A stretch of 64,000 bases of DNA from Escherichia coli (GTDB taxonomy: Bacteria; Pseudomonadota; Gammaproteobacteria; Enterobacterales; Enterobacteriaceae), in NCBI RefSeq assembly GCF_044647545.1, contig NZ_CP172818.1, one strand, 5' to 3'. The notes beneath the pieces were generated by a model. The model did no database searches, was not told the DNA's origin, and worked only from the letters and a program-made list of their open reading frames with translations. The position numbers and the translations under genes were made by a program. Position 1 is the stretch's first letter; each line of letters starts with the position of its first letter. Positions 17,879 through 21,058 of this stretch are shown here, in pieces.

Positions 17879-17909
17879 GTCGCATCAGGCAATAAGCGCC
17901 GGATGCGAC
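17879..17909. repeat. REP-like hairpin between convergent yfbR and yfbS
   Basis: gtcgcatc ... gatgcgac inverted repeat with GC-rich loop. Confidence 0.4.
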
Positions 17910-17921
17910 ATCAGCCTCTTG

Positions 17922-19754
17922 TCAAAACGGAAACAGCATCGGGATCATCACCACACAAACCGCCATCACGATAATGGTGAACGGTACCCCCAACTTCACA
18001 AAGTCACTGAAGCTGTAATTTCCCGGACCTAAAACCAGTGTGTTAACAGGTGAAGAAACCGGCGTCATAAAGGCGGCGGATGCTGCCATCGCCACGACCA
18101 TCGCGAATGGGTAAGGCGACACACCCATCGTTTTGGCAGCAGCCAGCGCAATCGGAGCCATCAACACCGCCGTCGCGGTATTAGAGATAAACAGCCCAAT
18201 AACCGCCGACAGGACAAACAAACAACCCAGCATCATATGTGGCCCGTAACCGCCGCCAATGTCCATCAGCCCTTTCACCGCCAGCGCGACACCTCCCGTT
18301 TTCTGTAATGCCACAGCAAACGGCATCATCCCAACGATCAAAATAATGCTCGGCCAGTGAATGGATTTATAGGCGCTTTCAGCATCGATACAGCGGAATT
18401 TCCCCATCAGCAGGCAGGCGATGATAGCGGCAACAGGATTAGGGATTTCATCGGTAAGCATTAACGCCACCATCAACACCAGGCAAAAAATGGCATGAGG
18501 TGCCTGACTGTGTGCTGGCGATGCTTCACTCACTTCTTCTGGTAAGTTCAGCGCCACAAAGTCACGCCCCTGTTTTGCCAGCATACCGATCAGTTTCCAG
18601 TTACCCACAACCAGGATGATATCGCCCAGCAGCAGAGGCTCATCCGCCAGCGAACCTTCCATCGCCTCGCCATTGCGCTTTAGCCCCACCACATTCAGTC
18701 CGTAGCGGGTACGAAAACCAATTTCGCGCACCGATTTACCAATAAGTTCAGACTCAGGAATTAATGAAATCTCTGCCATGCCCACATCAAGGGCCTGGTC
18801 AGAAAAATACTCGCCGCGCAGTACCATCGGCTCCAGCAATTGCTCACTACAAAATTGCCGGAGATCGACATCAGCCGCAGACATATCAATAAGCAAAACG
18901 TCACGCGCGCGAAATTCAGAAACCCCATTAACGTTCACGATAACGCGACGAAAACGCCGCCAGCGTTCAACACCGATGACGTTAGCGCCATAACGCTCAC
19001 GTAATTTGAGATCGTCCAGCCGTTGACCAATCATTGGCGAACCGGGGCGAATAGCCAGACGACGCGCACGCCCGGTCAGTCGATATTCACGGATAAGATC
19101 GCGAAAGGTTCGACGCGTCCAGCCTTCGCGCTGCGGGGTCTGGGTATCCCCTTTCAGCATGAAACGCATCACTAACATATACAAAATACCCAGCACCAGC
19201 ACGACCAGGCCAATAGGTGTTACGCTAAAGAAACTAAAACCATGATAGCCTTCACGCAGCAATTCACTGTTGACTACCAGGTTCGGCGGCGTCGCCACCA
19301 GCGTCATCATGCCGCTTATCAGCCCGGCAAAACTTAACGGCATCATCAGGCGCGACGGCGACGTTTGCATACGCATGGCAACGCTTAACACCACGGGAAT
19401 AAAGATAGCGACAACGCCGGTTGAACTCATAAACGCGCCAAGCCCCGCGACGGTCAGCATCAACAAAACCAACATTTTGATTTCACTGTTGCCCGCCACT
19501 TTGACCAGCCATGTCCCCATTACAGTGGCAACACCGGTACGGACCAAACCATCGCCAATAATGAACAAGGCGGCAATCAGGACAACGTTAGGATCGGAAA
19601 AGCCGGAAAATACTTCGGGGACCGTCAGCGTTCCGCTTAATGCAAACGCGACAATAACAAACAAAGCGACCGCATCCATACGCACTCTGCCCGTCGCAAA
19701 CAAGACGATGGCAACGGCCAGTAATGAAAGAACCCAAATCAATTCACCGTTCAC
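17922..19754 (-). CDS. yfbS: Putative anion transporter with internal TrkA-C (RCK_C) domains
   Basis: 610-aa ORF; hydrophobic N- and C-terminal halves flanking a charged central segment. Confidence 0.88.
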
Positions 19755-19797
19755 AACTTATCCTTGTTAATTGAGGGGGATGACTTGATTCTGCCAT

Positions 19798-19821
19798 AAA
19801 AAAGCCCCGACGAGACGGGGC
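19798..19821 (-). terminator. Rho-independent terminator downstream of yfbT
   Basis: Stem gccccg/cggggc; on minus strand followed by 6 U. Confidence 0.55.
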
Positions 19822-19840
19822 TAAATCATGATCAGGTGTT

Positions 19841-20501: not shown

Positions 20502-21058
<557 letters not shown>

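Follow-up and report, generated by a model that had tools for sequence, protein, structure and literature searches.

We analysed a 64,000-nt stretch of an Escherichia coli genome (hereafter the window; NCBI RefSeq assembly GCF_044647545.1, contig NZ_CP172818.1), in which we focused on the gene yfbS. The 610-residue open reading frame that had been proposed from the sequence alone coincides with a RefSeq CDS (WP_001012889.1, "SLC13 family permease"; Table 1). As proposed, yfbS lies between yfbR, which is convergent and downstream, and yfbT, which is upstream on the same strand. The former encodes a 5'-deoxynucleotidase, and the latter, now named hxpA, a hexitol phosphatase. The yfbS region is found in 5425 of 5426 complete E. 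coli genomes. Comparison with nine orthologues gave dN/dS values of 0.04-0.18, and the central domain (0.05-0.09) is as constrained as the membrane halves. yfbS is a real gene, with purifying selection acting on all three of its parts. It is already known, though uncharacterised, its domain architecture is already in databases, and the present results leave the existing annotation unchanged. Searches of the literature on yfbS, b2292 and the combination of TrkA-C with DASS yielded no functional study of the gene, but only mentions in expression tables and unrelated acronyms. Its importance is modest: it is among the E. coli genes that are still uncharacterised despite being present in nearly every complete genome.

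The DNA that separates the stop codon of hxpA from the start of yfbS contains an intrinsic-terminator hairpin and the sequence ATGGCA; 28 of 40 Enterobacterales loci retain the hairpin, with compensatory changes in its stem. A TGGCA at 19792-19796 and a 2.7-fold rise upon PspF overproduction were the basis for considering a sigma-54 promoter 5' of yfbS. This candidate was rejected: E. coli lacks a -12 GC element at the required distance, the element is unconserved, and a relaxed sigma-54 pattern was no more frequent in the window than in shuffled sequences.

Table 1 Features of yfbS and its upstream region, in coordinates of the window.
Feature	Position	Strand	Basis
yfbS CDS (610 codons and stop, GTG start)	17922..19754	minus	ORF list; same coordinates as RefSeq CDS
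N-terminal membrane half, residues 1-200 (first inverted repeat: five membrane helices and re-entrant hairpin)	19155..19754	minus	CitMHS profile 1-181, 156.5 bits; AF2 helices; hydropathy
Hairpin-1 tip Ser110-Ser111-Thr112, equivalent to DASS SNT motif 1 with Asn to Ser	19419..19427	minus	aligned to VcINDY S150-N151-T152
Thr155-Pro156-Pro157-Asn158, break of fifth membrane helix (DASS loop L5)	19281..19292	minus	aligned to VcINDY S200-P201-P202-N203
TrkA_C / RCK_C domain 1, residues 232-297	18864..19061	minus	Pfam PF02080, 40.6 bits alone
TrkA_C / RCK_C domain 2, residues 326-394	18573..18779	minus	Pfam PF02080, 51.7 bits alone
C-terminal membrane half, residues 416-610 (second inverted repeat)	17925..18509	minus	CitMHS profile 200-322; Na_sulph_symp profile 292-462
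Hairpin-2 tip Ser524-Asn525-Thr526, canonical DASS SNT motif 2	18177..18185	minus	aligned to both VcINDY SNT motifs
Residues 558-574, PS01271 fit, including Ser568-Pro569-Val570-Asn571 (DASS loop L10)	18033..18083	minus	regular-expression match; aligned to VcINDY LPVATPPNAIV
Shine-Dalgarno AAGGA, 6 nt 5' of the GTG start	19761..19765	minus	read from sequence
Intrinsic-terminator hairpin AGCCCCG / CGGGGCT, 6-nt loop, T run, then conserved ATGGCA	19792..19822	minus	terminator scan and inverted repeat

The sequence-only reading had described two hydrophobic halves separated by a charged segment of about 180 residues. The halves and the charged middle are borne out: residues 1-200 and 416-610 have mean Kyte-Doolittle values of +1.31 (9 K/R, 8 D/E) and +1.20 (7 K/R, 6 D/E), respectively, compared to -0.28 (33 K/R, 31 D/E) for residues 201-415. 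These same counts put the length of the charged segment at ~215 rather than ~180 residues, a minor difference. The two halves match CitMHS profile positions 1-181 and 200-322, which makes them one split transporter domain. They are 26% identical to each other (E = 3e-6), with SST aligned to SNT and PPN to SPVN, and the AlphaFold (AF2) model of the whole protein (pLDDT 91.3, pTM 0.89) repeats its helix pattern in residues 1-200 and 415-607. In the membrane part of YfbS, the two halves are homologous and inverted with respect to each other, and both contain a re-entrant hairpin and a broken helix.

When the model was searched with Foldseek, the top matches were all DASS structures (E down to 3.9e-12; target-normalised TM-scores of 0.74-0.78), and it superposes on the solved DASS/SLC13 carriers VcINDY, NaS1 and NaCT. 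Sequence matches to solved DASS carriers included VcINDY (7.8e-21), NaCT, NaDC1, NaS1, NaDC3, Pho90, DiT1/2 and INDY. YfbS thus shares the membrane fold of hairpin-bearing inverted repeats with VcINDY and the SLC13/DASS carriers (NaDC1, NaDC3, NaCT, NaS1, Drosophila INDY, LaINDY, plant DiT and yeast Pho90), and it has in common with them the second SNT motif, the PPN and SPxN helix breaks and a PS01271-type signature. The C-terminal half aligns with both VcINDY repeats and the N-terminal half with VcINDY residues 47-240; YfbS is without the first helix of VcINDY. It further differs from the DASS carriers in the ~215 extra residues, with two RCK_C domains, between its repeats, and in a Ser for Asn in its first SNT motif.

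Placement inside DASS proper is not secure, because YfbS reaches only 144.1 bits with the NCBIfam DASS model TIGR00785 (cut-off 198.6), and the best Pfam match is the broad CitMHS model (PF03600; 326.5 bits, 2.3e-97). CitMHS here refers to the citrate-metal:H+ symporters of TCDB 2.A.11. Na_sulph_symp (PF00939) also matched, at 74.9 bits against a cut-off of 27 (8.8e-21). None of the NCBIfam citrate-carrier models matched YfbS, those for MamN and ArsB of the ion-transporter superfamily gave weak matches only, and no CitM or CitH structure was among the PDB matches returned by sequence or fold. The YfbS family is large: a threshold of E <= 1e-3 gives 15,975 cluster representatives and one of E <= 1e-30 gives 2,527. 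It was seen in Gammaproteobacteria, Bacteroidota and Planctomycetota.

Genomes were scanned for YfbS homologues with a 13-sequence alignment. Enterobacterales keep the gene order pta-ackA / yfbV-yfbU-hxpA-yfbS / yfbR-alaA / lrhA. The neighbours differ in Aeromonas, Pseudomonas, Pasteurellaceae and about a dozen distant homologues, where we observed a GGDEF protein, an NMN transporter, lpxB-rnhB, an ABC transporter, AbgT with a peptidase, PFL, pentose-phosphate genes and sdhCAB. Phosphate-related neighbours are scattered among the distant homologues, with PPK1/PPK2 at locus L095 and PHO4 at locus L094. Across the loci examined, the neighbourhood gave no consistent signal for a substrate. In Aggregatibacter, Suttonella and locus L089, YfbS-like genes with 35-39% mutual identity adjoin an orthologous set of lipid genes, which encode a CDP-alcohol phosphatidyltransferase (closest to PIP synthases), a CdsA/YnbB-like cytidylyltransferase and an acyltransferase. 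To assess this association in reverse, we took 80 YnbB-like loci from metagenomes, whose flanks totalled 534 kb and, in 41 loci, extended to 3 kb or more on one side. Of the 80 loci, 55 contained YnbA-like genes, 64 the acyltransferase and none a YfbS-like gene (positive controls, 719-777 bits). The YnbA/YnbB-like lipid genes were therefore rejected as a general functional link to YfbS.

Tandem RCK_C (TrkA-C) domains between the membrane halves had also been proposed, with a domain search set beforehand as their possible refutation. The search supported them. TrkA_C (PF02080; curated cut-off 27 bits) matched the whole protein in two stretches (83.8 bits, 8.1e-24), and both copies scored above the cut-off when the fragments 201-315 and 316-417 were scanned separately. 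The two domains are homologous to each other (E = 6e-7). A profile of the central region, built from 36 family members, matched the solved RCK C-lobes of GsuK (2.6e-11), KtrC (5e-11) and KtrA (RCK_C, 1.4e-9), as well as KhtT and MthK, and domain 2 matched KtrC (6i8v, 7e-5) and the KtrA RCK_C domain (4xtt) by sequence. Structure prediction agreed: an AlphaFold model of the central region alone (pLDDT 90.4) returned the RCK C-lobe folds of MthK, KtrA, KtrC and the KtrA RCK_C domain in Foldseek (rmsd 1.8-2.5 Å over 72-87 columns, 19-30% identity), and it also matched the GsuK C-lobe and the AspT soluble domain. By Pfam, profile and fold, this is the same domain as in the C-lobes of MthK, GsuK, KtrA/KtrC, TrkA, KhtT and BusR. 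In regulators of the MthK/GsuK/KtrA type, RCK_C follows an RCK_N (Rossmann) lobe in rings that gate cation pathways, whereas YfbS has two RCK_C lobes without RCK_N, inside a putative anion carrier. The structure titles of solved RCK_C lobes name c-di-AMP (KtrA, KhtT, BusR, CpaA) and Ca2+ (MthK) as ligands. c-di-AMP, suggested by several of the closest solved lobes, was rejected as the YfbS ligand and cannot be assumed, because E. coli is not known to make it.

The tandem could also be a structural module, forming a cytoplasmic dimer or scaffold contact without ligand sensing and leaving transport unregulated at the protein level, which we consider unlikely. This reading draws on AspT, a dimeric elevator carrier in which two inverted repeats with one hairpin each are joined by a two-lobed cytoplasmic soluble domain. 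That domain gives a protein-protein interface and no ligand is described for it (PMC12462496), so the YfbS tandem could have a purely structural role. At the level of the whole tandem, the best fold match for the YfbS middle was the AspT soluble domain (TM 0.48 over 182 columns), and AspT was a weak match in the central-region profile search (E = 0.028). AspT and its aspartate:alanine exchanger (AAE) family share the plan of YfbS, inverted repeats joined by a cytoplasmic two-lobed domain, but the membrane domains are unlike at the family level (whole-protein TM-score 0.19-0.21). The AAE-family Pfam model had no match on YfbS, which does not have an AAE-type membrane domain. E. coli has AAE family members in YidE and YbjL. 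The weak conservation of RCK_C domain 1 (entropy 2.73, compared to 2.31 for domain 2) would also suit a structural role. On the other hand, the tandem is kept across 32-54% identity, some family members double it to four RCK_C copies, and small-ligand binding is common among solved RCK_C lobes. Conservation in the central part is highest at R360, G377, D378, L381 and G384, which all cluster in domain 2, a pattern as compatible with a defined site as with a fold core; D378, L381 and G384 are at least 95% conserved in 99 family representatives.

Motif conservation was determined in the same 99 representatives, which span 32-54% identity. The alignment places the SST/SNT tips and the TPPN/SPVN helix breaks of YfbS where VcINDY, NaS1 and NaDC1 bind anion and Na+; the roles of the equivalent residues have been described (PMC10980263). 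DASS carriers have SNT at both hairpin tips. In YfbS the second tip is canonical, with N525 present in 93 of 99 representatives, but at the first, between AF2 helices 91-106 and 111-128, S111 aligns with VcINDY N151. Of the 99 sequences, 65 have S and 27 have N at position 111, and N158 and P120 are invariant in all of them. Since the first tip reads Ser-Ser-Thr and not Ser-Asn-Thr, one canonical Na+ ligand appears to be missing. Ser111 takes the place of the Asn that provides a side-chain ligand at Na+ site 1, so coupling probably does not follow the canonical two-site Na+ scheme. Coupling via one Na+ site, H+ coupling or exchange is possible. Residues 558-574 match the Na+/sulfate symporter signature, PROSITE pattern PS01271, although this is a soft test.

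Two positions have been proposed to separate sulfate from carboxylate carriers, although they were called only possible determinants (PMC10980263). YfbS has Pro156 and Ser568 at these positions, like VcINDY (Pro201, Thr421) and unlike NaS1 (Ser260, Asn533), which leads us to lean weakly towards an organic di- or tricarboxylate-like anion rather than sulfate as the cargo. We hold it to be quite improbable that YfbS cotransports Na+ and sulfate as a bacterial equivalent of the SAC1-like transporters (SLT) of algae. As described in PMC8780407, Chlamydomonas SAC1 and SLT resemble SLC13 proteins, and their central intracellular loop contains TrkA-C domains, of which SAC1 has two and SLT three to four. 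By these descriptions the architecture of SAC1 and SLT1-3 is like that of YfbS, whose family also has two- and four-domain members; SAC1/SLT are eukaryotic and tied to sulfate uptake or sensing, and their relation to YfbS rests on the cited papers. The signature fit at residues 558-574 points the same way, and yfbS has been labelled 'sulfate transporter' (PMC3349551). However, that label is an annotation and not a test, Pro156 and Ser568 are as in the dicarboxylate carrier VcINDY, and sulfur-assimilation genes were absent from all neighbourhoods examined.

SAC1, which shares the two-TrkA-C architecture, has been called a putative sulfur sensor (PMC3355512; PMC8780407), and YfbS could by analogy be mainly a sensor ('transceptor') of anion availability with little flux, as proposed for SAC1. 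We find this very doubtful: all transport-site motifs are kept and highly conserved (N158 and P120 invariant, N525 at 93%), we found neither a signalling output domain nor a conserved partner gene, and neighbourhoods vary. A role as a cation (K+) transporter, for which the TrkA_C domain name and a 'cation transmembrane transporter activity' label in a passing statement (PMC8605246) might speak, is barely credible, as the membrane domain is of the DASS/ion-transporter-superfamily and not the Trk/Ktr/Kef type, the Trk model NF007039 covers only the RCK_C stretch (13.4 bits against a cut-off of 293), and every whole-protein fold match is an anion carrier.

We consider it likely that YfbS is an inner-membrane secondary transporter of the DASS/SLC13-type fold, with an RCK_C tandem in the loop joining its halves. 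It would act as a homodimer, with elevator movement of the hairpin-bearing transport domain. Its cargo would be a small anion, probably a divalent one, with transport coupled to a cation. Judged against VcINDY, whose TM1 is missing from YfbS, the N and C termini would lie on the periplasmic side and the RCK_C tandem on the cytoplasmic side. Because the tandem forms the tether from the end of repeat 1 to where repeat 2 begins, it could control the elevator, and it may bind a cytoplasmic ligand or ion and thereby restrain or release the movement. Pho90 is likewise regulated by a cytosolic domain, but one of another kind, an N-terminal SPX domain. Substrate and ligand, described by the sequence-only reading as not evident from sequence, are still not evident after the domain, structure and neighbourhood analyses; once found, they would make the catalogue of E. 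coli transporters more complete and provide a model for regulated DASS-type carriers.

A more far-reaching proposal, which we regard as a long shot, is that YfbS typifies a group of ligand-gated anion carriers, in which RCK_C would sense a cytoplasmic metabolite or ion other than c-di-AMP and the Ser-for-Asn change would give one-Na+, H+-coupled or exchange transport. In its boldest version, the cargo would be inorganic phosphate or a phosphorylated polyol. If so, yfbS would be tied to the adjoining phosphatase genes yfbR (nucleotidase) and hxpA (hexitol phosphatase); against such a tie, the neighbourhood is kept within Enterobacterales only, and a terminator lies between hxpA and yfbS. With phosphate as its cargo, YfbS would be a bacterial counterpart of Pho90, the yeast DASS-type phosphate carrier, with RCK_C replacing SPX. 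What speaks for this version is thin and includes the scattered phosphate-related neighbours at loci L095 and L094. Pho90 matches YfbS both by sequence (2e-6) and by fold.

The yfbS reading frame coincides exactly with a RefSeq CDS annotated as "SLC13 family permease", which bears out the 610-aa ORF proposed by the sequence-only reading, and the RefSeq flanks agree with its placement between the nucleotidase gene yfbR and the sugar phosphatase gene yfbT. A ribosome-binding site (AAGGA) lies 6 nt 5' of the GTG. The 4-kb stretch around yfbS is present in 5425 of 5426 complete E. coli genomes, with 100% identity to several of them, and the window is E. coli chromosome. When compared to nine orthologues of equal length, yfbS has a dN/dS of 0.04-0.18, and the constraint on its central region matches that on the membrane halves. 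The ORF and its layout are real, far beyond chance.

Features at the yfbS locus, elsewhere in the window, and at loci of distant YfbS-like genes
Feature	Position	Strand	Description
yfbS	17922..19754	-	610 codons, GTG start (ORF list)
yfbR		convergent with yfbS	flanking gene; 5'-deoxynucleotidase
hxpA (current name of yfbT)		same as yfbS	flanking gene; hexitol phosphatase
Intrinsic terminator	19792-19830	-	strong hairpin AGCCCCG / CGGGGCT plus T run, between hxpA stop and yfbS start
Palindrome	17879-17909		12-nt, imperfect, GTCGCATCAGGC / GCCGGATGCGAC; in 58-nt gap of convergent yfbR/yfbS
yfbU mechanical ORF	20502-21014	-	170 aa, GTG start
nuoG RNA motif RF01748	8576-8618	-	Rfam match
YfbS-like gene with lipid trio, L066-L068	9830-12013
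YfbS-like gene with lipid trio, L005	6601-8833
YfbS-like gene with lipid trio, L089	9282-11501

Hydropathy divides the product into three parts. Strong hydrophobicity marks residues 1-200 and 416-610 (mean Kyte-Doolittle +1.31 with 17 charged residues, and +1.20 with 13), and residues 201-415 have a mean of -0.28, with 33 K/R and 31 D/E. The expected hydrophobic halves and charged middle were thus recovered, but the middle spans ~215 residues instead of the ~180 first estimated. Pfam matched CitMHS (2.3e-97, two stretches), TrkA_C (8.1e-24, two stretches), Na_sulph_symp (8.8e-21) and DctM. YfbS was also scanned as four separate fragments, in which CitMHS profile positions 1-181 matched the N-terminal half and 200-322 the C-terminal half. 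Both TrkA_C copies exceeded the cut-off of 27 alone, as central fragments (residues 232-297, 40.6 bits; residues 326-394, 51.7 bits), which favours the original interpretation of the middle as tandem RCK_C domains. The two copies are mutually homologous (E = 6e-7), as are the membrane halves (26% identity over 147 residues, E = 3e-6). The initial observation is correct and its interpretation supported; public databases already list the gene and its domain architecture.

The membrane domain of YfbS has a DASS fold built from two inverted repeats, its site motifs are conserved, and the loop between the repeats holds two RCK_C lobes in tandem. Relatives were collected with an exhaustive HMMER search (cluster representatives: 15,975 at E <= 1e-3; 2,527 at E <= 1e-30), and 99 diverse full-length relatives (32-54% identity) were aligned. 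The AlphaFold2 model of whole YfbS is confident (pLDDT 91.3, pTM 0.89) and its helix pattern recurs in both halves. Foldseek against the PDB returned exclusively DASS/SLC13 carriers as top matches (VcINDY, NaS1, NaCT, NaDC3, INDY, NaDC1, Pho90, plant DiT and LaINDY; E down to 3.9e-12, TM-scores on target 0.74-0.78), with AspT, ArsB and TRAP SiaQM ranked lower. Modelled by itself, the central region (pLDDT 90.4) matched the RCK C-terminal lobes of GsuK, MthK, KtrA, KtrC, KhtT, TrkA, PH0236 and BusR, typically at 1.8-2.5 A rmsd over 72-87 columns, and its sequence profile found the same RCK proteins (GsuK, 2.6e-11; KtrC, 5e-11).

Two repeats combined with two RCK_C lobes are a plan that YfbS has in common with the aspartate:alanine exchangers (AAE family), and as a tandem the YfbS middle resembles the AspT soluble domain (TM 0.48 over 182 columns; sequence-profile match weak, 0.028). 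Membership in the AAE family was rejected, as no AAE model matched and the whole-protein TM-score to AspT was ~0.2. YfbS passes the Pfam Na_sulph_symp threshold and scores 144.1 bits against the NCBIfam DASS model, under its cut-off of 198.6. Its first SNT motif is non-canonical. We file YfbS as a DASS-like ion-transporter superfamily member and not as a textbook DASS protein. Compared by published descriptions alone, its architecture is like that of algal SAC1, with two TrkA-C domains, and SLT1-3, with three to four (PMC8780407; PMC3355512). In a YfbS-family subgroup (proteins P0172, P0190 and P0229; ~785-813 aa), the membrane halves are separated by four TrkA_C domains, in agreement with the domain count reported for algal SLT.

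Direct alignment with full-length VcINDY pairs YfbS residue 7 with VcINDY residue 47, so YfbS lacks the first VcINDY helix. M109-S110-S111-T112 aligns with VcINDY I149-S150-N151-T152, and A154-T155-P156-P157-N158 with G199-S200-P201-P202-N203; in the C-terminal half, S524-N525-T526 aligns with both VcINDY SNT motifs and S567-S568-P569-V570-N571 with A-T-P-P-N. In the AlphaFold2 model, these motifs mark the tips of both hairpins and the points where the short helices 156-167 and 569-578 begin, a predicted placement that is the DASS arrangement. In work on the NaS1/NaDC1 structures, the anion is bound by hairpin Ser and Thr and by residues of the broken-helix loop L5, and Na1 and Na2 by the side chains of the hairpin Asn residues together with backbone carbonyls (PMC10980263). 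Combined with the alignment, these roles indicate that the second site is canonical in YfbS and that Ser replaces the Na1 Asn. Across the family, the Na1-Asn position holds Ser in 65/99 relatives and Asn in 27/99, and the second SNT Asn is retained in 93/99. Suggested sulfate/carboxylate discriminators are NaS1 Ser260 versus VcINDY Pro201 and NaS1 Asn533 versus VcINDY Thr421 (PMC10980263). At these positions YfbS has Pro156 and Ser568, a VcINDY-like pair, and on sequence grounds we lean weakly towards an organic anion as its cargo. Residues 558-574 match what we take to be the PROSITE Na+/sulfate symporter signature. The only unusual feature to emerge is the Ser-for-Asn replacement at one cation site.

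By analogy with VcINDY, NaS1 and AspT (the last described in PMC12462496), YfbS would form a homodimer in which the hairpin-bearing domain moves like an elevator. Both termini would be periplasmic and the RCK_C tandem cytoplasmic, since the equivalent VcINDY loop is cytoplasmic and the insert is K/R-rich. As the tandem runs from where repeat 1 ends to where repeat 2 begins, it could control this movement, and we hypothesize that a ligand-dependent change in the tandem could restrain or free the elevator.

The stem of the hxpA-yfbS terminator shows compensatory changes in 28/40 Enterobacterales loci, with a conserved TGAT(T/A)TA upstream and a conserved ATGGCA directly after the T run. Five Photorhabdus loci (L026, L027, L030, L033 and L075) retain yfbV-yfbS-yfbR and have lost yfbU and hxpA; the hairpin 5' of yfbS is also missing there, which fits a role of this hairpin as the hxpA terminator. 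Termination does not account for the conservation of ATGGCA, which might serve a yfbS promoter as its -35 box; no conserved -10 element was found beside it in front of yfbS. The palindrome in the yfbR/yfbS gap looks like a REP element and is probably a bidirectional stop. The yfbU ORF exceeds its RefSeq CDS (495 nt) by 6 codons, an ordinary start-codon choice.

The literature on yfbS holds expression data only. At low oxygen, yfbS rises 3.5- and 4.6-fold in Dickeya and Pectobacterium and is unchanged in E. coli (PMC3349551); it is up 2.7-fold on PspF overproduction (PMC2731931) and lower in intracellular uropathogenic E. coli (PMC4959519) and with lignocellulose inhibitors (PMC8605246). Synteny with hxpA and yfbR is kept across Enterobacterales and does not extend outside the order, and distant homologues have heterogeneous neighbours. 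At eight Pseudomonas loci (L063, L069, L074, L079, L080, L081, L083 and L084), the gene directly 3' of the yfbS orthologue, in the same orientation, encodes a membrane protein that contains a GGDEF diguanylate-cyclase domain (141.9 bits); at a ninth, L082, the same cluster lies ~6 kb downstream. Genes for a LysR regulator and a TauE/SafE-type permease often lie close by. Since these loci come from related species, the adjacency may reflect one event.

Three YfbS-like genes that are distant from one another, each from a different subfamily, adjoin one orthologous lipid-gene trio: a YnbA-like CDP-alcohol phosphatidyltransferase closest to PIP synthases, a CdsA/YnbB-like cytidylyltransferase and an acyltransferase. 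A reverse test on 80 metagenomic YnbB-like loci, with working positive controls, found the lipid genes together (55/80 and 64/80) but a YfbS-like gene at 0/80. The adjacency is therefore sporadic, and a functional link to the lipid genes was rejected. No tRNA genes were found in the 64-kb window, and the nuoG RNA motif, which scored 48 bits (threshold 33), was the sole match of an Rfam scan of the window at gathering threshold.
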